Shown one piece after another: positions 5,396 through 59,629 of a stretch of DNA of 64,000 bases. Location: assembly GCA_045604925.1 (NCBI GenBank), contig JAZUOZ010000016.1:15220-79219 (forward strand), in the 5' to 3' direction. The notes beneath the pieces were generated by a model, which was not told where the DNA came from, made no database searches, and worked only from the letters and a program-made list of their open reading frames with translations. Origin of the DNA: Candidatus Nanosyncoccus sp. (GTDB taxonomy: Bacteria; Patescibacteriota; Saccharimonadia; Saccharimonadales; Saccharimonadaceae). Numbering within the stretch: position 1 is the stretch's first letter; each line of letters starts with the position of its first letter. The position numbers and the translations under genes are program-made.

Positions 5396-5429
5396 GAATA
5401 TCCCTATAGGGATATTCTTTAATAATTCC

Positions 5430-5519
5430 TGGCGGAAGCGAAGGGATTCGAACCCCCGAACGGCGTAAACCGTTACACGATTTCGAGTCGTGCGCCTTCA
5501 ACCACTCGGCCACGCTTCC
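5430..5519 (-). tRNA. tRNA-Ser (anticodon CGA)
   Basis: The reverse complement folds with acceptor GGAAGCG, anticodon stem CACGA/TCGTG and loop CTCGAAA, a long variable arm, T loop TTCGAAT and an encoded CCA. Confidence 0.9.
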
Positions 5520-5695
5520 ACTTATTACTTTATCACATTTACCCCTATATTTCAACGGTGTGTGCTTTTCGCAAGAAGTTTCAAATTTTAGTGATATGAT
5601 TAGTTTGAGTTTTGCCTGCTCACTTTATTTTGTAATGTAATTTTTTGCTGAAAAAAGCGAGCTCTTTAGAGAGCGCTACAGTATTAGTAGAGTTA

Positions 5696-6243
5696 GGCAT
5701 CGCCATAGACTTAGGCATTGCCGTAGACTTTAGCCTCACCAGAGACTCTGGCATTGCCAAAGACGTCAGCATTGCCATAGACTTCAGCCTCGCCATAGAC
5801 TTCAGCCTCGCCAAAGACTTTGGCATCGCCACAGACTTCAGCCTCGCCAAAGACTTTGGCATCGCCGTAGACTTTAGCCTCACCAGAGACTCTGGCATTG
5901 CCAAAGACGTCAGCATTGTCATAGACTTCAGCCTCGCCATAGATTCTGGCATTGCCGTAGACTTTAGCCTCACCAGAGACTCTGGCATTGCCAAAGACGT
6001 CAGCATTGCCATAGACTTCAGCCTCGCCAAAGACTTTGGCATCGCCAAAGACCCAGGCATCGCCATAGACTTTGGCATTGCCGTAGACTTCAGCATTGTC
6101 ATAGACTTCAGCCTCGCCAAAGACTCTGGCATTGTCATAGACTTTAGCATCGCCAAAGACGTCAGCATAGCCAAAGACTTCAGCATTGTCATAGACTTCA
6201 GCATCGCCGCAGACACAGGCAGCATCATAGACCTTAGCCGCGT
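5696..6243. repeat. 18-bp periodic coding tandem repeat
   Basis: An exact 55-bp block gccgtagactttagcctcacc...cagcattg occurs at 5720, 5864 and 5954. The spacings are 144 and 90 bp, both multiples of 18. Several frames on both strands stay open. Confidence 0.9.
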
Positions 6244-6418
6244 CACTAATCCAGCATAACCCATAGTGCGACAGGTTGTCTTCGGATTCAATGTAGCCTC
6301 CAAGGTCGCCCTTTTTGACATCTCCAAAGTCTCTGACGGCCCTTATGCGATGCAATCTATGGCCACTAAATTCGATGCTGTCACTTTCTGCTAATTCATA
6401 TTTCTTGTTCTTGCTCAT
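5711..6418 (-). CDS. Hexapeptide-repeat (left-handed beta-helix-like) protein
   Basis: A roughly 60-aa non-repeat N-terminus (KYELAESDSIEFSGHRLHRIRAVRDFGDVKKGDLGGYIESEDNLSH) is followed by about 30 units of [GD][DEN]A[EKR]V[YFS]. The ATG at 6418 is preceded by aaaggggtg. The track start at 6427 is a GTG. Confidence 0.7.
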   Translation of the reverse strand: MSKNKKYELAESDSIEFSGHRLHRIRAVRDFGDVKKGDLGGYIESEDNLSHYGLCWISDAAKVYDAACVCGDAEVYDNAEVFGYADVFGDAKVYDNARVFGEAEVYDNAEVYGNAKVYGDAWVFGDAKVFGEAEVYGNADVFGNARVSGEAKVYGNARIYGEAEVYDNADVFGNARVSGEAKVYGDAKVFGEAEVCGDAKVFGEAEVYGEAEVYGNADVFGNARVSGEAKVYGNA

Positions 6419-6530: not shown

Positions 6531-6570
6531 AACGGCTTGGGGATTTGAATCCCTTCGCTTCCGCCAGGAA
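6531..6570 (+). pseudogene. tRNA-Ser(CGA) 3'-half fragment (att-like)
   Basis: 6547..6570 (gaatcccttcgcttccgccaggaa) is the exact reverse complement of 5426..5449, which is the tRNA 3' end plus 4 flanking nt. A degenerate match to the T arm and variable arm continues upstream. Confidence 0.8.
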
Positions 6571-8237: not shown

Positions 8238-10766
8238 ATGATGAAAAAGTTCTTTTCAAAAAATCTGGTTTTCCTTCTAACATGTGTGTTTTTTGTCGGT
8301 GTCTTGCTCACTGGCGTTTTTTTGGCTAATACGGCTTTTGCTAACAACACTAAAAGCGACGATGAGATTAAGGTGCGTACCGAGGTTGATAATAGCAACA
8401 TCGCTGGCAGTAGCCATAGCTCTGATGATGCCGAATTTATCGATGGCGGGCTAATCGTGAAGGCCGAGAGCGAGGCCGAGGTAGAGCCCTATGGCGAGGT
8501 CACTAAGGTGGCGGAGCATTTTTATATCGTAGAAACAGATAATGCCGAGGCGGCGGAGGACGCGGCCGAGAATCTCGAAGAAAACCCAAAAGTCCAGATT
8601 GTGTTGCCGAACATCAAGCTAAAGACCCAATCTATCCGTGCGCCAATGTATTACTCCTGGGGTACTGCCGCTACGGGCGCCGATCATTACACCGACTGGC
8701 TGAACTATTTAAAAGATAAGGGACAGGACCCAAATAACATCGTGGTGGCTGTTTTGGATAGCGGAATTTGGAGAGATCACGAGGTTTTCTTTGATGATGA
8801 TGGCAACAGTCGCCTCTGTGAGGGTGATCTAGCAAATTATGCCAGATGGTATTCTTATCATAACGATACCTTGGCGGTCTATGATAATGTTGATGATGTT
8901 GATGGGCATGGCACTAACACCGCTGGGATCGTCGCGCAGGCTACCCCGAGCAATGTCTGTATCATCCCGGTAAAAGTCACGGAAAATGGCGAGGGCGATT
9001 TGGTCAGTCTGGTTCAGGCGCTGGCTGATGTCACCCCTGTGGCAGATGTGGTGAATATGAGCCTTGGTGCCTCAGATAGTGAGTTTGATGCCGAATATAA
9101 GGAGCTGTTTGACGATTTTTTGGCAGAACTGATCGGAGACCATCCGGTGACTCTGGTCGCTTCAGCTGGTAATGATAACGAGAGTGCCGTCTCCTTCCCT
9201 TCTTCGCTAGAGCACGTGATTAGTGTCTCTGCACTGAGAAAGAGCGGCAGTAGCTACGTTTTTGATAGCAGTTACTCTAACTATGGTGCTGGAGTCGCTT
9301 TCTCGATGCCTGGTACGAGTGTGTTGGTGCCGGCTTCGGAACTAGCCCCGGGCGGCTATTATTATGAAACTAGTAGCGGTACATCTTATTCTTCGCCGCA
9401 TTTGACTGCTACGGCGGCGCTGCTGCGGTCAGACTCAGAGTATACTTATACGAGTACGACTGATTTTGCGAGCCAAAGCGATGTCTTTGCTGGTCTGAAA
9501 AAATACGCGACTTATCTTGGCTCGAGTAGTTCAAAATGGGACAAATACTACGGCTATGGGATGGTCGATTTTGGCACAAATATGTTTTCTCCTGGCCGGA
9601 TAAACGCTACTGTTGCACTGGCCACTGATGGTAAATCTGCCACCATCTCTGGTTTTGCGATGGGTGCAGACCAGATTACAGCGTACGCTGTGACTGATAG
9701 CACCATCACTCCATCGAACTGGACTAGCGTGAGCAGCACTGCCTATGGCTCATCTTATGTTGCAGAGAATTTGAGTTCGACTGTTTTCGAAGATGGCACT
9801 TATTATCTCTGGCTAAAGGACAAAAATGGCAAGACAGGTTACGCCACGGTTGAGGTCAGTGGTGTGGAGTTCGAGCAGCTGATTGCTGATGGCATCTACA
9901 TTGTGCATTCGGCGTTGAATAATAGCAAAGTGCTTGATGTTGCTGGGGCTAGCGATGGCAACACAGCCAATATCCAGCTTTATGACAACAATGGCAGCGC
10001 CGCGCAGAAGTTTATCTTCCGCCATCTAGGCAATAATACTTACCAGATAGAAAACCTGAAATCTGGGAAGGGGATTGATGTGGCCGGAGGCAAGACTGGT
10101 AATAACGCGAACGTTCAGCAATATGCCGCCAACTCGACTTGTGCGCAAAAGTGGCATGCCAAGAAGACTATCGATGGCTATATCTCTTTTGTCTCGACGT
10201 GCGGCGGGCGGTATCTTGATATTGCTGGTGGCAGCACCAAAAACGGCGCCAATGTCCAAATCTATGGCAGCAACGGTTCTAAGGCGCAAAAATTTGCCGT
10301 AGAAGCCTTCCAGCGGGCCCCAGAAGGCCAGTTAGTCGCAAATGGCACATATAGGGTGGTTTCGGCATTGGCAGCGGATAAGGTGCTGGATATTAGCGCT
10401 GGTAGCCGTAATAATGGGGCGAATCTCCAGCTCTATAGCAGCAATAATTCTAATGCGCAAAAGTTTAATATCACCTATCTAAAAGACGGGTTTTATAAGA
10501 TCAGCAACGTTGGCTCGGGGAGGGTGGTTGATGTATCTGGGGCTGGGTTGAGAAATGGTACTAATGTCTGGCAGTATGCCTGGAATGGTTCTATTGCCCA
10601 ACAATGGATGATCGTGAAGACTGCGGATAATTATTACACCTTTGTTTCTAGGTGTAATGGCTTGAGTCTCGATATTGCTGGCGGTAGTACTAAAAATGGG
10701 GCTAATGCTCAGATATACGCTAGAAACGGCACCAAAGCGCAGAAGTTTGCGCTGGTGAGGGTTTGA
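8238..10766 (+). CDS. Secreted subtilisin-family (S8) peptidase with two C-terminal ricin-B lectin modules
   Basis: Catalytic Asp-His-Ser in VAVLDSGI, DGHGTNTAG and SGTSYSSPH. A signal peptide follows MMKKFF. The C-terminal half has repeated Q-x-W/F beta-trefoil motifs (AQKF, AQKW, AQQW). Confidence 0.85.
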   Translation: MMKKFFSKNLVFLLTCVFFVGVLLTGVFLANTAFANNTKSDDEIKVRTEVDNSNIAGSSHSSDDAEFIDGGLIVKAESEAEVEPYGEVTKVAEHFYIVETDNAEAAEDAAENLEENPKVQIVLPNIKLKTQSIRAPMYYSWGTAATGADHYTDWLNYLKDKGQDPNNIVVAVLDSGIWRDHEVFFDDDGNSRLCEGDLANYARWYSYHNDTLAVYDNVDDVDGHGTNTAGIVAQATPSNVCIIPVKVTENGEGDLVSLVQALADVTPVADVVNMSLGASDSEFDAEYKELFDDFLAELIGDHPVTLVASAGNDNESAVSFPSSLEHVISVSALRKSGSSYVFDSSYSNYGAGVAFSMPGTSVLVPASELAPGGYYYETSSGTSYSSPHLTATAALLRSDSEYTYTSTTDFASQSDVFAGLKKYATYLGSSSSKWDKYYGYGMVDFGTNMFSPGRINATVALATDGKSATISGFAMGADQITAYAVTDSTITPSNWTSVSSTAYGSSYVAENLSSTVFEDGTYYLWLKDKNGKTGYATVEVSGVEFEQLIADGIYIVHSALNNSKVLDVAGASDGNTANIQLYDNNGSAAQKFIFRHLGNNTYQIENLKSGKGIDVAGGKTGNNANVQQYAANSTCAQKWHAKKTIDGYISFVSTCGGRYLDIAGGSTKNGANVQIYGSNGSKAQKFAVEAFQRAPEGQLVANGTYRVVSALAADKVLDISAGSRNNGANLQLYSSNNSNAQKFNITYLKDGFYKISNVGSGRVVDVSGAGLRNGTNVWQYAWNGSIAQQWMIVKTADNYYTFVSRCNGLSLDIAGGSTKNGANAQIYARNGTKAQKFALVRV

Positions 10767-10783
10767 TAGGCTATAATAAGGTT

Positions 10784-11161
10784 ATGGAAGAAAGTATTTT
10801 TACGAAAATTATCAAAGGGGAGATTCCTTGTTACAAAATCTACGAGGATGATAAGACTTTAGCGTTTTTGGACATTGCGCCAGAGGTGATGGGGCATACG
10901 CTAGTGGTGCCCAAAATCCAAGTAGACAAGATTTATGAGTTGCCGGATGATGACTATCAGGCTCTAATGGCGACCGTGAAAAAAGTTGCAATTAGAATGG
11001 AAAAAGTGTTAGGCAAACGGCCGATTATGAAAGTGATAGGAGTAGATGTTCCGCACGCACATGTCCATGTGATGCCTTATAGCGCTGAGTGGAAAGATGA
11101 GGTTGTTTTAAAGCCGACAGAGGCGGAGATGCAAGAAATTTGCGATAAGCTGGCATTTTAG
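10784..11161 (+). CDS. HIT family (histidine triad) hydrolase
   Basis: HAHVHVMP histidine triad and FTKIIKGEIP N-terminus. The ATG lies 6 nt after TATAAT. Confidence 0.85.
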   Translation: MEESIFTKIIKGEIPCYKIYEDDKTLAFLDIAPEVMGHTLVVPKIQVDKIYELPDDDYQALMATVKKVAIRMEKVLGKRPIMKVIGVDVPHAHVHVMPYSAEWKDEVVLKPTEAEMQEICDKLAF

Positions 11162-15761: not shown

Positions 15762-18686
15762 TTGATGAAATTTGCAAGTGCATATGAGCCAGGGGAATTT
15801 GAGTCGGATATTTATGCGGCGTGGGAAACGGCAGATGAGTTTTTGCCGGGGGGCAGCAAAAATGGCGCCGAAGAGGCCTATAATGCAGCGGTGAAAGGCG
15901 GTCGCCAGACTTATTCGATCGTGATGCCGCCGCCAAATGCTAATGGTAATCTCCACATTGGCCATGGGTTGACGATTGCAATCGAAGATTCTCTGACTCG
16001 TTATTATCGTTTAAGGGGCGATGCCACTTGGTATATTCCAGGGGCGGATCACGCTGGGTTTGAGACTTGGGTGGTCTATGAGCGTGCGCTGGAGAAAGAG
16101 GGTCATACGCGATTTGAGTATTCGCGCGACGAGCTTTATGCTAGGGTGTGGGATTTTGTCCAGGAACAGCGCGGTAATATGGAGCTGCAAGTGCGAGCGC
16201 TGGGGGCGTCTTGCTCGTGGAAAGATTTGACATTTACGCTAGATGAAAATGTGGTACGTCGGGTGTATTCGACTTTCGAGAAAATGTGGAATGACGGGAT
16301 GATTTACAGAGGCGAAAAGCTGGTAAATTATTGTACTAAGCATCAGACGGCGTTTGCGGATATTGAGGTGGAACATAAGGATGAGAAGGGACATCTCTGG
16401 GATATCGCCTATACGGTCGTCCAGGAGCAGCCATCTGCTTCTTCAGAAGATGCGCTCCTCCCTCGCGGTACCTCAAGTACCGCTCGGTCCGGTGCTCCTT
16501 CTTCATCGCATCTGACTACTCCTGAACAATCGTTGGAGATTATCGTAAGCACTACTCGGCCAGAGACCCTATTTGGTGATGCGGCGGTGGCGGTTAACCC
16601 CGAAGACGAGCGGTACAAAGATTTAATTGGCAAGTCTGTACATTTACCTCTAACAGATAGGACTATCCCAATTATTGCTGATGAGCATGCTGATCCAGAG
16701 TATGGGACTGGTGCCGTGAAGATTACCCCGGCACATGATTACGATGATTTTGAGGTGGGCGAGAGGCATACTTTGCCGAGGATTCAGGTGATTGGGTCGG
16801 ACGGTAAGATGTTACCAGAAGCGGGCTCTGACTATGCTGGTTTGACGACCGAAGAGTGCCGTAAGAAAGTATTACATGATCTAAAAGAACAGGGGTTGCT
16901 CAGAGGTGAAAAAGCAATTACTCACTCGGTGGCGCATTGTTATAAATGTGGCACGGTGATTGAACCGATGCTAAAAGAGCAGTGGTTTATCGATGTAAAA
17001 CGCCTGGCTAAGACTGCAATAGAGCATCTGGAAGCTGGAGAAATTAAGTTTTATCCTGCGTCTAAAAAGCAGGTTTTAATTAATTATTTACAGGGGTTGA
17101 AGGATTGGAATATTTCGCGCCAGATACCGTGGGGCATCGCAATTCCAATGTTTAGGAAGGCCACAGCGGAGCGCTCTGCTTCTTCAGAAGATGCGCTCCT
17201 CTCTCGCGGTACCTCAAGTACCGCTCGGTCCGGTGCTCCTTCTTCATCGCATAGCATCTCCGCTGAGGCTTCCTCAAGAGGTGATGAGTGGGTGTTTGAC
17301 ACCCGGACGCATCTTTCTGAGATTGAAATTGGCGGGGTGCGATACGAGCGTGATGAGGATACTTTTGACACCTGGTTTTCTAGCTCGCATTGGCCGGTAG
17401 TTTGTACTAACTGGGAGGAAGGTACGCCAAATCCTTATTATCCGTTGAACGTGATGGAAACAGGGGCGGATATCTTGTTTGCTTGGGTAGCACGGATGAT
17501 TATGATGGGGCTTTACGTCACTGGCGAGGTGCCGTTTAAAGAGGTATATCTGCATGGTTTGGTCCTCGATGCGCATGGGGCCAAGATGAGTAAATCTAAG
17601 GGCAATGTGCTAAATCCGATGGAGATGGTAGCAAAATATGGGTCGGATGCGTTCCGGCTAGGTATTTTGCGCGGGCGCTCGGCAGGGATGAATCAAGCGT
17701 TCTCTGAGCAGTCGATTGTCTCGGGGCGGAATCTTTGTAATAAGCTGTGGAATGTTTCCAGGTTCATACAGGATATGATTGATAAAGCGGAGCTAAGTAC
17801 AGATGCTCCGAAACGCTCTCTCGAGCCCGTCGTTACGGGTCTCGGTCGCCGAACCGCTCCCGTTGTCGCGGACGCCGGAGCATCTGACTTAGACTCTACC
17901 TTATCTAATGACAATTCTGGCGAGGACTGGATCTTGCGCGAGATCAACGAGGCGAAATGGCAGATTGAAAGCCAGATGAAAAACTACCGTTTCTCGGAGG
18001 CGGTGGAGACACTTTATTCCCTAATTTGGGATAAATACGCTGATTGGTTTATTGAAACCGAGAAGATGTTTAAGAATACTGAACTTTTGAAGGCAACTTT
18101 GGTGGCGATTTTGAAACTTTTCCATCCGTTTGCTCCATTTGTAACAGAGGCGATTTGGCAGAACTTATCGTGGACGGATGGGTTCTTGATTTCCCAGAAA
18201 TGGCCGTCTGACTTCAAATTTGACCCGATAAGCGCCGAGGAGTACGAAAAGCTTATGGTTGTAGTGTCTGGCATCCGAGGCACCTTACAGGGCCTCTCAG
18301 AGGCTCACAAGGGCATTTCTAAGTCGAGTATCAATGTGCTTTATGGCAATGATTCGCTGGTAGACGATAATTCCCTGCTAGTTCAGCATTTGACTAAAGT
18401 TGCTAGCGTTATTTCCAGCGAAGGTCAGCCTAGAGGTTTACGTCTGCCGCTAGCGAATCACGAGGTTTATTTGGATGTCTCCCCAGAGGTCGTGGCTTCT
18501 TATGCCAAGTCGTTGGAGGATAAGATTCTGGCGGTTGGACGAGAGCTTGATAGCCTAAACGCTCGGATGATGAACCCGAATTACGTGGACAAAGCACCAG
18601 CTGAGTTGGTAAAAGAAACCCAGGATGCAATTACCGAAAAATCTGCACTGATAGAGCGTTTGAAGCAAGAGCGGGAAGCGATTTAG
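15762..18686 (+). CDS. valS: Valine--tRNA ligase
   Basis: PPPNANGNLHIGH (HIGH), KMSKSKGN (KMSKS) and a C-terminal coiled coil. It carries three in-frame repeat insertions. Confidence 0.95.
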   Translation: MMKFASAYEPGEFESDIYAAWETADEFLPGGSKNGAEEAYNAAVKGGRQTYSIVMPPPNANGNLHIGHGLTIAIEDSLTRYYRLRGDATWYIPGADHAGFETWVVYERALEKEGHTRFEYSRDELYARVWDFVQEQRGNMELQVRALGASCSWKDLTFTLDENVVRRVYSTFEKMWNDGMIYRGEKLVNYCTKHQTAFADIEVEHKDEKGHLWDIAYTVVQEQPSASSEDALLPRGTSSTARSGAPSSSHLTTPEQSLEIIVSTTRPETLFGDAAVAVNPEDERYKDLIGKSVHLPLTDRTIPIIADEHADPEYGTGAVKITPAHDYDDFEVGERHTLPRIQVIGSDGKMLPEAGSDYAGLTTEECRKKVLHDLKEQGLLRGEKAITHSVAHCYKCGTVIEPMLKEQWFIDVKRLAKTAIEHLEAGEIKFYPASKKQVLINYLQGLKDWNISRQIPWGIAIPMFRKATAERSASSEDALLSRGTSSTARSGAPSSSHSISAEASSRGDEWVFDTRTHLSEIEIGGVRYERDEDTFDTWFSSSHWPVVCTNWEEGTPNPYYPLNVMETGADILFAWVARMIMMGLYVTGEVPFKEVYLHGLVLDAHGAKMSKSKGNVLNPMEMVAKYGSDAFRLGILRGRSAGMNQAFSEQSIVSGRNLCNKLWNVSRFIQDMIDKAELSTDAPKRSLEPVVTGLGRRTAPVVADAGASDLDSTLSNDNSGEDWILREINEAKWQIESQMKNYRFSEAVETLYSLIWDKYADWFIETEKMFKNTELLKATLVAILKLFHPFAPFVTEAIWQNLSWTDGFLISQKWPSDFKFDPISAEEYEKLMVVVSGIRGTLQGLSEAHKGISKSSINVLYGNDSLVDDNSLLVQHLTKVASVISSEGQPRGLRLPLANHEVYLDVSPEVVASYAKSLEDKILAVGRELDSLNARMMNPNYVDKAPAELVKETQDAITEKSALIERLKQEREAI
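16434..16511. repeat. Family-A 78-bp hairpin repeat, copy 1, in frame in valS
   Basis: 77 of 78 nt identical to 17175..17252. Central stem gcggtac / gtaccgc. Encodes SASSEDALLPRGTSSTARSGAPSSSH. Confidence 0.9.
17175..17252. repeat. Family-A 78-bp hairpin repeat, copy 2, in frame in valS
   Basis: See copy 1. It is inserted after IPMFRKATAER in the conserved catalytic region. Confidence 0.9.
17811..17883. repeat. Family-B palindromic repeat, copy 1, in frame in valS
   Basis: It shares gcccgtcgttacggg and ccgctcccgttgtcgcgga with the truB copy. It is bracketed by the 9-bp inverted repeat gatgctccg / cggagcatc. Confidence 0.8.
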
Positions 18687-18692
18687 CCTCTG

Positions 18693-19835
18693 TTATCGTA
18701 CTTCGCAGGTCAGTCCGTAATCTTGATTGCCGAAGCGGGTGGCGAGAGTAGCGACCTCTTGAGCGGAATAGCCATCGTATGGCTTAAAGAATTGGCTGAT
18801 GGCTGCCTCATCGGTGATTCTGCTGCGGTTTGCTTTTAGCCAGAGGTAGAGAGAAGAATCTGTGTCGCTTGAGGTGACGGTTATTCCCTGCACTCCGGAG
18901 TCCTTATACGCGTTTAGATTATTCCCTAGTGCCGAGATACTGGAATAGAGCTCTTTATCTTGGTCTGAAAGGGTTTCTGGATCGACTTTGTCTAGGTCGA
19001 GGGTGATTGTAAAGCTTTCTAGGACGCCGTCAGCTATTGAGTAATTTGTGGACATAGTGTAGAAATCTTTTTTTGCGCTACAATCAATGCTGGCGTTTTC
19101 TCCTCCTGCTGGAGCGGTGGTTTCATCGGTTTTGACCGAGGTGTCCTCTTTTTCAGCGGTGAGACTTTCGGTCGCGCCGGTCTTATTCTCGCTCGGGCTG
19201 GATATTTCGGTTTTGGCGGAATTTTGACTATTTCCAGAGACAATTGAGACGATAATCACAGCCAAAATGGTAATACCTAGGCCAATAACAAGCACGCGGT
19301 TGGTAGGTTTTTTGAAGAAGGCTTTGATTCCCTTTTCTTCTTTTTTGCTATTTTCGTCGGTGTTTTCGCTGTTTTCTTCCCTGTCTTTTGGCCCTGCTGT
19401 CTCGTCATCTGGATTTAGGGAGATTTCTGGAGTTTCTGTTGTTGTCCCTGGTTGTTGAGGTTGCATTTGAGGCATACCATAGGGGTGATTCGCCTGATGA
19501 GCTGTCTGATATGGTGGTTGGTTTATCTGGTGAGGCTGATTTAGCTGGTTTGGCTGCTGAGGCTGGTTTGGTTGGTTTGGCTGCTGAGGCTGCGATTGTA
19601 GCCATGGCTCTTGGCGGAGGTTTGGCTGTTGCGATTGCATTTGTGGCCCCATTTGCTGCTGCATTTGTGGCTGCATTTGTGGCTGCGACCCTGGTTGTGG
19701 TCCTGGCTGCGACTGTGGTCCAAGCTGGGAGTGTAGCCTACTTTGTGCTTGTGGCCCTGGCTGAGGTTGAGGCTGAACAGGGGTAAAAGGCTGCCCTGGC
19801 TCTGGATTATTAGTTGGTTGATTATTATCGTCCAT
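18693..19835 (-). CDS. Membrane-anchored protein with a Pro/Gln-rich N-terminal region
   Basis: About 130 aa of P/Q low complexity, one TM helix (VLVIGLGITILAVIIVSIV), then a Ser/Thr-rich and globular C-terminal part. Confidence 0.55.
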   Translation of the reverse strand: MDDNNQPTNNPEPGQPFTPVQPQPQPGPQAQSRLHSQLGPQSQPGPQPGSQPQMQPQMQQQMGPQMQSQQPNLRQEPWLQSQPQQPNQPNQPQQPNQLNQPHQINQPPYQTAHQANHPYGMPQMQPQQPGTTTETPEISLNPDDETAGPKDREENSENTDENSKKEEKGIKAFFKKPTNRVLVIGLGITILAVIIVSIVSGNSQNSAKTEISSPSENKTGATESLTAEKEDTSVKTDETTAPAGGENASIDCSAKKDFYTMSTNYSIADGVLESFTITLDLDKVDPETLSDQDKELYSSISALGNNLNAYKDSGVQGITVTSSDTDSSLYLWLKANRSRITDEAAISQFFKPYDGYSAQEVATLATRFGNQDYGLTCEVR

Positions 19836-28083: not shown

Positions 28084-28174
28084 GGAAGGGTGGCCGAGTG
28101 GTTGAAGGCGCACGCTTGGAAAGCGTGTAAGGGGGCTAACCTCTTCGCAGGTTCGAATCCTGTCCCTTCCGCCA
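28084..28174 (+). tRNA. tRNA-Ser (anticodon GGA)
   Basis: Acceptor GGAAGGG, anticodon stem CACGC/GCGTG with loop TTGGAAA, a long variable arm, T loop TTCGAAT and an encoded CCA. Confidence 0.9.
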
Positions 28175-58807: not shown

Positions 58808-59629
58808 ATGAACTTAGTTAACAAAGATGTTCTGCTCGTGGATAAGCCGGCGGGGATGAGCTCTTTTGGAGTGGTCGCTAGAGTAAGGCGAGTGTTGACA
58901 GAGCAAAGGCGAGAGCAAATCCGAGAAGAGTGGGCTTTATCTGGGCGTGTGCTCTCAGATTTGCCGAAGGGTGCTCTGCCAAAACGAGTGAAAGTAGGAC
59001 ATGCTGGGACTTTGGATCCGTTTGCAACGGGTCTTTTAATTTGTTTACTGGGGAAGGCGACAAAGCGAGCGGGGGAGTTTTTGAAGCTAGATAAGAGGTA
59101 TACTGCGACAATTTGCCTGGGGAAAGTGTCTAGTACTGGAGACACGGAGGGAGAAATTGTAGAATATGATTCTTCACGGGCACCGGTCGCGTCGCCCGTC
59201 GTTACGGGGACGCTCCCTATCCTCCGCTCCCGTTGTCGCGGAAGATCCCGTGAAGAACATATTCCTACAATTTCCCAAATACGTTCAGTGCTAGAGCAGT
59301 TTATAGGGGAGATTGTGCAGAGGGTGCCGGCATATAGCGCTGTTAAAATCGACGGACGGAGAGCGTATGATTTGGCGCGGAAGGGGATCGAAGTGGAGAT
59401 GCCGGAGCGCAAGGTGCAGATTTATGAAATATCTATCTTGCGGTATGAGTGGCCGGAGCTGACGATAGATTGTAAAGTGAGCTCGGGGACGTATATCCGG
59501 GCGCTGGGCGAGGACATTGGCAAGGCACTAGGGGTGGGCGGTTACCTGACGGCGCTTCGAAGGACGGAGATTGGAGAGTATAAGGTGAGCGATGCAGTGA
59601 CACTGGGGGAACTGGGGATAGAAAACTAG
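58808..59629 (+). CDS. truB: tRNA pseudouridine(55) synthase
   Basis: LLVDKPAGMSS and KVGHAGTLDPFATGLL with the catalytic Asp. It carries one family-B repeat in frame. The ATG lies 6 nt after TGaTAAAAT. Confidence 0.9.
   Translation: MNLVNKDVLLVDKPAGMSSFGVVARVRRVLTEQRREQIREEWALSGRVLSDLPKGALPKRVKVGHAGTLDPFATGLLICLLGKATKRAGEFLKLDKRYTATICLGKVSSTGDTEGEIVEYDSSRAPVASPVVTGTLPILRSRCRGRSREEHIPTISQIRSVLEQFIGEIVQRVPAYSAVKIDGRRAYDLARKGIEVEMPERKVQIYEISILRYEWPELTIDCKVSSGTYIRALGEDIGKALGVGGYLTALRRTEIGEYKVSDAVTLGELGIEN
59174..59255. repeat. Family-B palindromic repeat, copy 2, in frame in truB
   Basis: It shares gcccgtcgttacggg and ccgctcccgttgtcgcgga with 17811..17883. It is bracketed by the 8-bp inverted repeat ttcacggg / cccgtgaa. 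Confidence 0.8.

Follow-up and report, generated by a model that had tools for sequence, protein, structure and literature searches.

The 64,000-nucleotide stretch of Candidatus Nanosyncoccus sp. DNA analysed here, referred to as the window, contains two near-identical 78-bp palindromic repeats within a single open reading frame (ORF). The host ORF is valS, whose homologues are annotated as valine--tRNA ligase of Candidatus Saccharibacteria and whose product, valyl-tRNA synthetase (ValRS), belongs to the Pfam families tRNA-synt_1 and Anticodon_1. The repeats are both in frame with valS, differ at 1 of 78 bases and lie 741 bp apart; beyond the edges of the two cores there is no identity except at three of five upstream bases, and none of 100 shuffles of the window yielded a comparable match. 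Each core consists of 26 codons and encodes the peptide SASSEDALL(P/S)RGTSSTARSGAPSSSH. The initial annotation of the window had described this pair, and its coordinates, single mismatch, length and peptide were exact; the 7-bp central stem that it reported (GCGGTAC/GTACCGC) is present in both copies, as are the two antisense ORFs that read through them, and stop codons are absent from five of the unit's six frames. Searches of the window with blastn-short, nhmmer and a covariance model returned no copies beyond the valS pair. The data presented below make it very likely that the two repeats are the cores of a non-autonomous, selfish family of palindromic DNA repeats that is dispersed, and would have spread, in gut and rumen Candidatus Saccharibacteria (Nanosyncoccus and its relatives).

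The 78-mer folds with an energy of −27 kcal/mol (z = −4.4), and pairing runs past its edges into the flanks (copy 1, CCAGGAG...CTCCTG; copy 2, CAGCGGAG...CTCCGCTG). As these flanks differ between the copies, the 78 bp that had been taken for the whole unit is merely the shared core of a longer hairpin; a full copy comprises ~115-120 nt and includes copy-specific arms (Table 1). The arms of the two valS copies are of different types, with right ends CATCTG-ACTACTCCTG and CATAGC-ATCTCCGCTG, respectively.

The core is not confined to valS. An exact degenerate pattern corresponding to its left half and centre, used to scan a collection containing one genome per species, matched 37 loci, all of which are in metagenome-assembled genomes (MAGs) of Candidatus Saccharibacteria/Candidatus Nanosyncoccus. 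These MAGs are mostly from the ruminant gut and often contribute several contigs per genome. The same pattern had no match in viral contigs, while a pattern for the right half matched five loci in JGI metagenomes, and scanning the DNA around relatives revealed copies in further genes on their contigs, among them the CTP synthase gene of L004. A covariance model, R1, was built from 42 distinct copies aligned without gaps and used to search 461 kb (8-kb stretches around the matches, mostly from MAGs), where it returned 61 matches, 58 of which were classified. Of the 58 copies, 34 reside in stop-to-stop ORFs of at least 150 amino acids, always in a single orientation and a single frame (sense frame 0), about 23 are intergenic, and one is antisense (frame −1) within the arginyl-tRNA synthetase (ArgRS) gene of L021. 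The hosts, identified through Pfam, comprise at least 12 proteins, most of which are housekeeping enzymes. They include the aminoacyl-tRNA synthetases ValRS (four sites), isoleucyl-tRNA synthetase (IleRS; two sites) and ArgRS (two sites), the CTP synthase PyrG, TsaD, DNA polymerase I (PolA, in the 5'-3' exonuclease domain), FtsW/RodA and MurG, a response regulator and a histidine kinase, together with two proteins that lack Pfam domains. This host range derives from the DNA scans alone. A profile of the peptide (27 amino acids doubled to 54 columns) retrieved only 10 short hypothetical ORFs among 5.8 billion proteins, which reflects the swamping of a 27-residue low-complexity match by E-values in a database of that size, and an exhaustive representative search with the 35-residue peptide of the window gave two matches. 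Among the 23 intergenic copies, 14 begin 0-21 nt past, or overlap, the stop codon of a co-oriented upstream ORF (L009, L010, L013, L016, L024, L025, L030, L031, L032, L033, L036, L044, L046 and L047); the next downstream ORF is usually much farther away than that stop codon. Three intergenic copies are located just upstream of an NrdG-like radical-SAM gene, and two (L009 and L024) contain stop codons in frame 0. These data show that the element is a dispersed, clade-restricted family with in-frame copies in many essential genes.

The hairpin is maintained at the level of DNA. The conserved core is an imperfect hairpin, described by a 93-nt model with 24 Watson-Crick pairs and conserved bulges, which the copy-specific arms lengthen to ~110-140 nt. 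Of the 24 pairs predicted by RNAalifold, 16 display compensatory double changes. When the structure was fixed, 97.3% of 1008 cells were standard pairs compared with 75.4% in shuffles, and changes on both sides of a pair occurred in 214 cells compared with 58, a value of 214 being reached in none of 500 shuffles. Sliding the partners by 1-3 columns reduced pairing to 26-46%. The exchange of bases is illustrated by columns 52/91, which are C-G in 21 copies and U-A in 20, and by columns 54/89, which are G-C in 16, C-G in 15 and A-U in 8. G·U or U·G occupies 13 cells and A·C or C·A 12; the lack of an excess of G·U indicates that the two strands are equivalent, as in a DNA palindrome, and not as in an RNA helix formed by the sense strand.

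The orientation of the element is tied to GC skew. The skew of the locus is positive in the orientation of the element for 57 of the 58 copies, comprising all 34 coding copies, 22 of the 23 intergenic copies and the antisense copy of L021. In the last, the host ArgRS gene and most of its neighbours are on the opposite strand, but the element remains aligned with the skew. In the window the skew of the plus strand remains positive across genes on the minus strand, showing that it is associated with replication and not with the coding strand. The G-rich strand is the leading strand, which is identical in sequence to the template of the lagging strand. The top strand of the element is thus located where DNA is transiently single-stranded.

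A structured RNA that acts in the transcript, be it a cis-regulatory hairpin, an RNase III or stability element, a small RNA or an excised intervening sequence, would account for a long, stable hairpin with strong covariation, and for the many intergenic copies that closely follow a co-oriented stop codon, where terminators and 3' stabilizers lie. Such a role is unlikely. No Rfam family came near its threshold (best scores of 13-21 bits against gathering scores of 37-81), the share of G·U (1.3% of cells) is unlike that of RNA helices, and no consistent U-tract follows the hairpin. Coding copies keep frame and avoid stop codons, which would be needless if the segment were excised, and in L021 the orientation tracks the skew instead of the host gene.

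The distribution of the element among ValRS proteins is patchy. In an alignment of the window protein with 20 relatives, the peptide family SASS(E/A)DALLxRxTxSxxxSGAPxSxH occurs at four distinct sites in different lineages, and the length of ValRS in the Saccharibacteria clade ranges from 865 to 1094 amino acids. Relatives with 73-81% identity to the window protein (P0005, P0010, P0015, P0018, P0023 and P0045; 865-868 amino acids) lack this peptide, while P0001, which is 95% identical, contains the copy at site 1 and lacks the core at site 2. In orthologues that lack the insert, site 1 is occupied by IAYPYEGGEIIV or IAYEVVDGGKPGEITEIVV, and site 2 by FRKADSEADGPEW or FRNVDDPTDW; the VV encoded by the left arm of copy 1 is conserved in them. 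The view that the repeats are lineage-specific insertions within ValRS is therefore upheld, but QEQP and ATAER, regarded in the initial annotation as conserved ValRS sequence, are absent from the insert-free orthologues and belong to the inserted arms. That annotation had set two alternatives against a likeness to Rickettsia palindromic elements (RPEs), namely an ancestral ValRS peptide and a 78-mer found nowhere else; both are contradicted by the insert-free relatives and by the copies in other proteins and intergenic DNA, which supports the RPE-like interpretation. Loss as well as gain is evident. At site 2 of L001, which is 95% identical, an 84-nt gap leaves the two arms adjacent, and site 1 of L007 also displays an 84-nt gap, both of which are secondary in-frame losses of the core that left scars. 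In the window itself the corresponding sites in pyrG, tsaD and polA are empty. Copies at sites 1 and 2 are present in independent assemblies of different samples (L001/L002, L003, L004, L005, L006 and L038).

The insertion sites are compatible with the fold of the host. In a phmmer alignment with Thermus thermophilus ValRS (1GAX), site 1 is between residues 204 and 211, just N-terminal of the TTRPET motif, and site 2 is between residues 415 and 441; both fall in gaps that separate conserved alignment blocks. An AlphaFold2 model based on a 21-sequence alignment was poor (mean pLDDT of 50) and presented the inserts (residues 223-256 and ~467-509) as coil with pLDDT of 26-38, like much of the protein; it was not used as evidence, and the mapping is founded on the sequence alignment to 1GAX. 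In general, intragenic copies occupy loops, linkers or termini of mostly housekeeping enzymes. Sites 1 and 2 of ValRS seem to be hot spots that gather inserted material. P0076 and P0096 contain far longer Ser-rich insertions, of up to ~100 amino acids, at these two sites. In L004 the copy at site 1 of valS (10631-10801) is split by a nested 78-nt insertion with a palindrome of its own (CGACAAGC TT GCTTGTCG), which replaces the left half of the central stem, and the gene remains in frame. Elsewhere, in L029, extra partial copies are found in tandem behind a full copy downstream of position 2875 (STARSVSPTSLNN..., SVARSGAP).

The frame used by the sense-strand coding copies specifies a hydrophilic peptide rich in Ser, Ala, Thr and Pro. 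Given the single frame and the absence of stop codons in coding copies, the insert is probably transcribed and translated with the host protein, in which case peptides spanning ...QEQPSASSEDALLPR... and ...AERSASSEDALLSR... would be diagnostic. Insertions in other frames and positions have presumably been purged by selection. It might be argued that the peptide is itself the selected entity, a useful protein module such as a lineage-specific Ser/Thr-rich linker or a modification or sorting motif, to which the palindrome is incidental. The 34 sense coding copies do share one frame and one peptide family, and DALL and T-x-S are invariant in the sampled copies, the invariance of DALL being partly imposed by the search pattern. 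About 40% of copies, however, are intergenic, some with stop codons in that frame, and the antisense copy is read as a quite different peptide. Furthermore, compensatory changes in the stem freely vary the peptide (RGTSSTAR, RRTESTSP and QRTDSTSR, for instance), and the enzymes that host it are unrelated and carry it in variable loops, linkers or termini. A protein module is thus very improbable as the explanation for the family.

The copy-specific arms are templated from the flank. The left flank of each copy was scored against reverse-complemented right flanks, either its own or those of other copies; self comparisons averaged 10.7 and non-self comparisons 4.6, and 75% of copies exceeded the 99th percentile of the non-self scores. 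The register of arm pairing is almost constant across copies, and the longest perfect arms are 17 bp (ArgRS, L011) and 19 bp (L036). At all six sites that were checked against insert-free orthologues, the left arm includes native, conserved host codons and the right arm includes their reverse complement. Thus, at site 1 of ValRS in L003 the native left sequence is GAAGTTGTT (E-V-V) and its reverse complement, found in the right arm, is AACAACTTC, and in ArgRS (L011) the corresponding sequences are GGGCACTTTTATCATCG (W-A-L-L-S-S) and CGATGATAAAAGTGCCC. The left arm comprises native F-V-L-F codons at site A of IleRS (L039), H-F-D codons at site B of IleRS (L012), W-L-E codons in TsaD (L035) and E-I-V-E-Y-D codons in the TruB gene of the window, which is host to a second family described below; in each case their reverse complement is in the right arm. 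Polarity is constant, with the native sequence on the 5' side of the top strand and the inverted copy on the 3' side. At the orthologous site 2 of ValRS the arms have diverged between genomes and yet remain complementary (CAGCGGAG/CTCCGCTG in the window, CAGAAGAA/TTCTTCTG in L006 and CCCTGGG/CCCAG in L004). Two other origins of the arms were considered. The arms might be pre-existing hairpins, such as terminators, that host the core in their loop; this was rejected as a general rule because the left arm consists of conserved native codons in ArgRS, IleRS, ValRS, TsaD and TruB, and because the left arm of intergenic copies often includes the last codons and the stop codon of the upstream gene. 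That the arms always travel with the element was rejected in view of the same native-codon left arms, yet it does occur, as the site-2 arms of the window resemble those of L029.

Within genomes the cores show concerted evolution. In the window, the core at site 2 agrees with that at site 1 at 77 of 78 positions, compared with 65/78, 66/78, 60/78 and 53/78 for the site-2 copies of L006, L038, L004 and L005, respectively, and in L003 the cores at sites 1 and 4 are likewise similar (74/78). Paralogous cores are therefore closer than orthologous ones, indicating that the core was copied recently within the window genome. Since sites 1 and 2 are also filled in more distant relatives, the near-identity is not what two independent insertions of old date would leave; it points to recent intragenomic copying or gene conversion, as had been proposed from the similarity of the pair. 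Conversion of an old site-2 copy, or re-insertion of the core into a scar like that in L001, could be responsible.

Flank-derived arms and concerted cores raise the question of whether the element moves at all. Hairpins might have arisen separately at each site by template switching during replication, a process known to make hairpins in a single step (for example PMC10710096), and the likeness of the cores would then reflect convergence or gene conversion only. This is highly doubtful. A core of 81-93 nt with the same bulges and invariant blocks occurs at >50 unrelated sites in many genomes and is not locally templatable, so that some process must deliver it to new sites; in addition, arms of at least 20 nt are common to copies in unrelated genes. 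The remaining explanation, a single internal duplication in valS, or an assembly artefact, of a segment found nowhere else, would fit the restriction of the window copies to one gene but can be dismissed, as the element is present at 37 loci and in at least 12 proteins and the site-1 and site-2 copies recur in the independent assemblies listed above.

A second, unrelated palindromic in-frame repeat, family B, has the core GCCCGTCGTTACGGG...CCGCTCCCGTTGTCGCGGA and copy-specific arms of 28-30 nt. In addition to two copies in the window (Table 1), it was found in L001/L002, in L006 and at 685-737 of L008. Within ValRS it is present in the window protein and P0001 and in P0004, P0006 and P0010, and absent from the other ValRS sequences. 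In truB the left arm is the native sequence coding for GEIVEYD and the right arm is its inverted copy. With the two cores described above, the family B copy brings the number of palindromic inserts in valS to three. This second family, the longer unit, the flank-templated arms and the orientation by replication strand go beyond what the window sequence had revealed. Other features of the window are included in Table 1.

Table 1. Features of the window: valS and its repeats, family B copies and other sequences.
Feature	Position	Strand	Description
valS	15762..18686	+	Valine--tRNA ligase, 974 amino acids; four blocks of alignment with T. thermophilus ValRS 1GAX
Copy 1, full hairpin	~16413-16532		Arms copy-specific
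Copy 1, left arm	16413..16433	+	ACGGTCGTCCAGGAGCAGCCA; native T-V-V codons and inserted QEQP codons; pairs with 16512-16532
Copy 1, core	16434..16511	+	SASSEDALLPRGTSSTARSGAPSSSH; 26 codons; ValRS site 1, editing-domain entry
Copy 1, covariance-model match	16428-16520		102.7 bits
Copy 1, right arm	16512..16532	+	CTGACTACTCCTGAACAATCG; encodes LTTPEQS; left arm copied inverted; reverse complement CGATTGTTCAGGAGTAGTCAG
Copy 2, full hairpin	~17154-17274		Arms copy-specific
Copy 2, left arm	17154..17174	+	AGGAAGGCCACAGCGGAGCGC; AGGAAG is the native R-K codons of IPMFRK; pairs with 17253-17274
Copy 2, core	17175..17252	+	SASSEDALLSRGTSSTARSGAPSSSH; ValRS site 2, after WGIAIPMFR
Copy 2, covariance-model match	17169-17261		106.5 bits
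Copy 2, right arm	17253..17274	+	AGCATCTCCGCTGAGGCTTCCT; encodes SISAEAS; left arm copied inverted
Antisense ORF over copy 1	16409..16633	-	
Antisense ORF over copy 2	17084..17371	-	
Family B copy in valS	17781-17905		Fold of −31 kcal/mol, z = −3.9
truB-like gene	58808-59629		
Family B copy in truB-like gene	59153-59274		
ORF directly downstream of valS	18693-19835	-	380 amino acids; N-terminal third Q/P-rich, low complexity (QPQPQPGPQ...)
Tandem repeat array	5615-6334		18-nt unit; at least 26 register copies that overlap, with 60-83% identity; presumably codes for hexapeptide repeats
Inverted matches	5426-5519, 6539-6570, 28084-28174		31-50 nt, GGTTCGAATCC-type T-arm sequences; look like putative related tRNA genes on opposite strands

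The data presented above describe lineage-specific gain and loss, upkeep of a hairpin at the DNA level, flank-templated arms, an orientation that follows GC skew and concerted evolution of the core. The location of the top strand on the lagging-strand template, in combination with a right arm that is the inverted left host sequence, suggests a model in which the element would propagate as a single-stranded DNA hairpin at the replication fork. The core would be copied into a new site, after which the nascent 3' end may snap back on the hairpin, copy the upstream flank by fold-back or template switching and then resume synthesis; later hairpin-templated copying could keep the diverging arms complementary. 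A dedicated enzyme, such as a HUH/Y1-type single-strand transposase, may be involved. In its complete form the model is offered only tentatively: a replication-coupled, single-strand hairpin element whose core is copied to the side of the lagging-strand template, and whose newly synthesised, self-complementary 3' end folds back to write an inverted upstream flank, would generate a unique palindrome at each insertion, even in essential genes. It might do so without a transposase, through template switching between copies, or via an unrecognised enzyme of the candidate phyla radiation (CPR), and at least two unrelated core families would share this architecture.

Several observations weigh against the interpretation of the repeats as a family that spreads. 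Copy number is low (two per 64 kb in the window), and mobility would follow from the patchy distribution, just as translation would follow from the statistics of frame and stop codons only. No transposase or partner enzyme was identified in the sampled 461 kb. Comparison of filled and empty sites revealed no target-site duplication, there being no consistent direct repeat and the flanks being inverted repeats; a TCTGCT/TCCGCT pair at site 2 of valS is equally explained as deletion microhomology in L001. The arms are not always host-derived. Those of window copy 2 (AGGAAGGCCACAGCGGAGCGC ... ATCTCCGCTGAGGCTTCCT) are nearly unchanged around a copy in an unrelated protein of ~1000 amino acids (L029), which belongs to the very MAG in which site 2 of ValRS is unoccupied, and in TsaD and PolA both arms are partly non-native, such that the fold-back model needs arms that are partly carried along. 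Most of the genomes are MAGs, with the direction of replication deduced from GC skew alone. Finally, the copies used to measure covariation were ascertained with the left-half and centre pattern, which fixes some columns, the 3' partners of most covarying pairs being outside that pattern.

Of the known processes and elements that resemble the repeat, template switching, which produces quasipalindromes, makes a one-step reverse-complement copy of adjacent sequence with perfect stems (for example PMC10710096) and explains the arms and their compensatory divergence. It is a mutational process and not an element, however, and leaves a conserved 93-nt core at many sites unexplained. Insertion sequences (ISs) of the IS200/IS605 group and their derivatives (PATE and the repetitive extragenic palindromic (REP)/RAYT system) contain imperfect DNA hairpins with conserved bulges and show an orientation bias in which the active top strand is on the lagging-strand template (PMC5027513, PMC6006769), and neither these elements nor the Saccharibacteria element have terminal inverted repeats or target duplications. 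In contrast to the one long symmetric hairpin observed here, they possess two distinct subterminal hairpins, a specific tetra- or pentanucleotide target and a Y1 TnpA or RAYT protein, and the group is not known to duplicate its flank in inverted form. No target motif is common to the left flanks of the 42 aligned copies apart from helix 1 of the element itself, and tblastn with three approximate, distant queries (IS200/IS608 TnpA and E. coli RAYT) gave nothing below E = 0.02 in the 461 kb, a small sample of each genome. Orientation bias is thus the only one of the defining features of IS200/IS605 elements that was found.

[quoted passage not shown] The defining features of MITEs are conserved terminal inverted repeats, duplication of the target site and the existence of a related IS, whereas the termini of the Saccharibacteria element are variable, only the central 93 nt being conserved, and intragenic copies are the majority of the sample and not the exception. 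The 8-kb stretches sampled around the matches contained no parent IS sharing the ends of the element.

Protein-coding palindromic repeats are regarded as essentially a peculiarity of Rickettsia, in which RPEs were reportedly described by Ogata et al. (2000, Science; 2002, Genome Research). A search of the literature on Saccharibacteria and Patescibacteria for palindromic, MITE or in-frame elements found nothing relevant, and a palindromic repeat in coding genes is apparently undescribed for the phylum. The hosts of the repeat are ultra-small, host-dependent members of the CPR, and its targets include cell-division proteins as well as aminoacyl-tRNA synthetases, PyrG, TsaD and PolA. That repeats outside the phylum of Rickettsia behave in this way suggests that genome reduction, together with a process that propagates hairpins, leads to them recurrently. 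The inserts explain part of the length variation of CPR housekeeping proteins, and the covariance model can be used to mask or track them in the annotation of MAGs and in phylogenomics.

To our knowledge, neither flank-templated arms nor orientation by GC skew has been reported for RPEs. In addition to these two properties, with conservation at the centre of the hairpin, a right arm templated on the upstream host flank and an orientation strictly tied to skew, the Saccharibacteria element differs from RPEs in its much lower copy number and in its occurrence in an unrelated phylum (Saccharimonadota/CPR), with no known sequence relationship, and the likeness, taken from descriptions of RPEs, is one of behaviour. 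In PMC10969869 and PMC1166351, RPEs are described as short palindromes of ~100-150 bp that form hairpins and invade both coding and non-coding DNA; R. felis contains 728, of which 85 are within ORFs, and in R. conorii nearly half are within ORFs. As portrayed there, RPEs also insert in frame in unrelated housekeeping genes, at positions compatible with the fold, each family encoding a single conserved peptide; a host-dependent bacterium with a reduced genome harbours several families side by side, and no transposase is known. The comparison with RPEs made when the repeats were first noticed therefore holds with respect to the palindrome, the invasion of coding and non-coding DNA, the conserved frame and the single peptide, and the Saccharibacteria element is best viewed as the closest analogue of RPEs in behaviour, one that appears to work like an RPE without being a demonstrated member of that group. 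A core with templated arms, Watson-Crick covariation and skew-dependent orientation leads to testable predictions on the spread of hairpin DNA at replication forks that are also relevant to RPEs and REPs.

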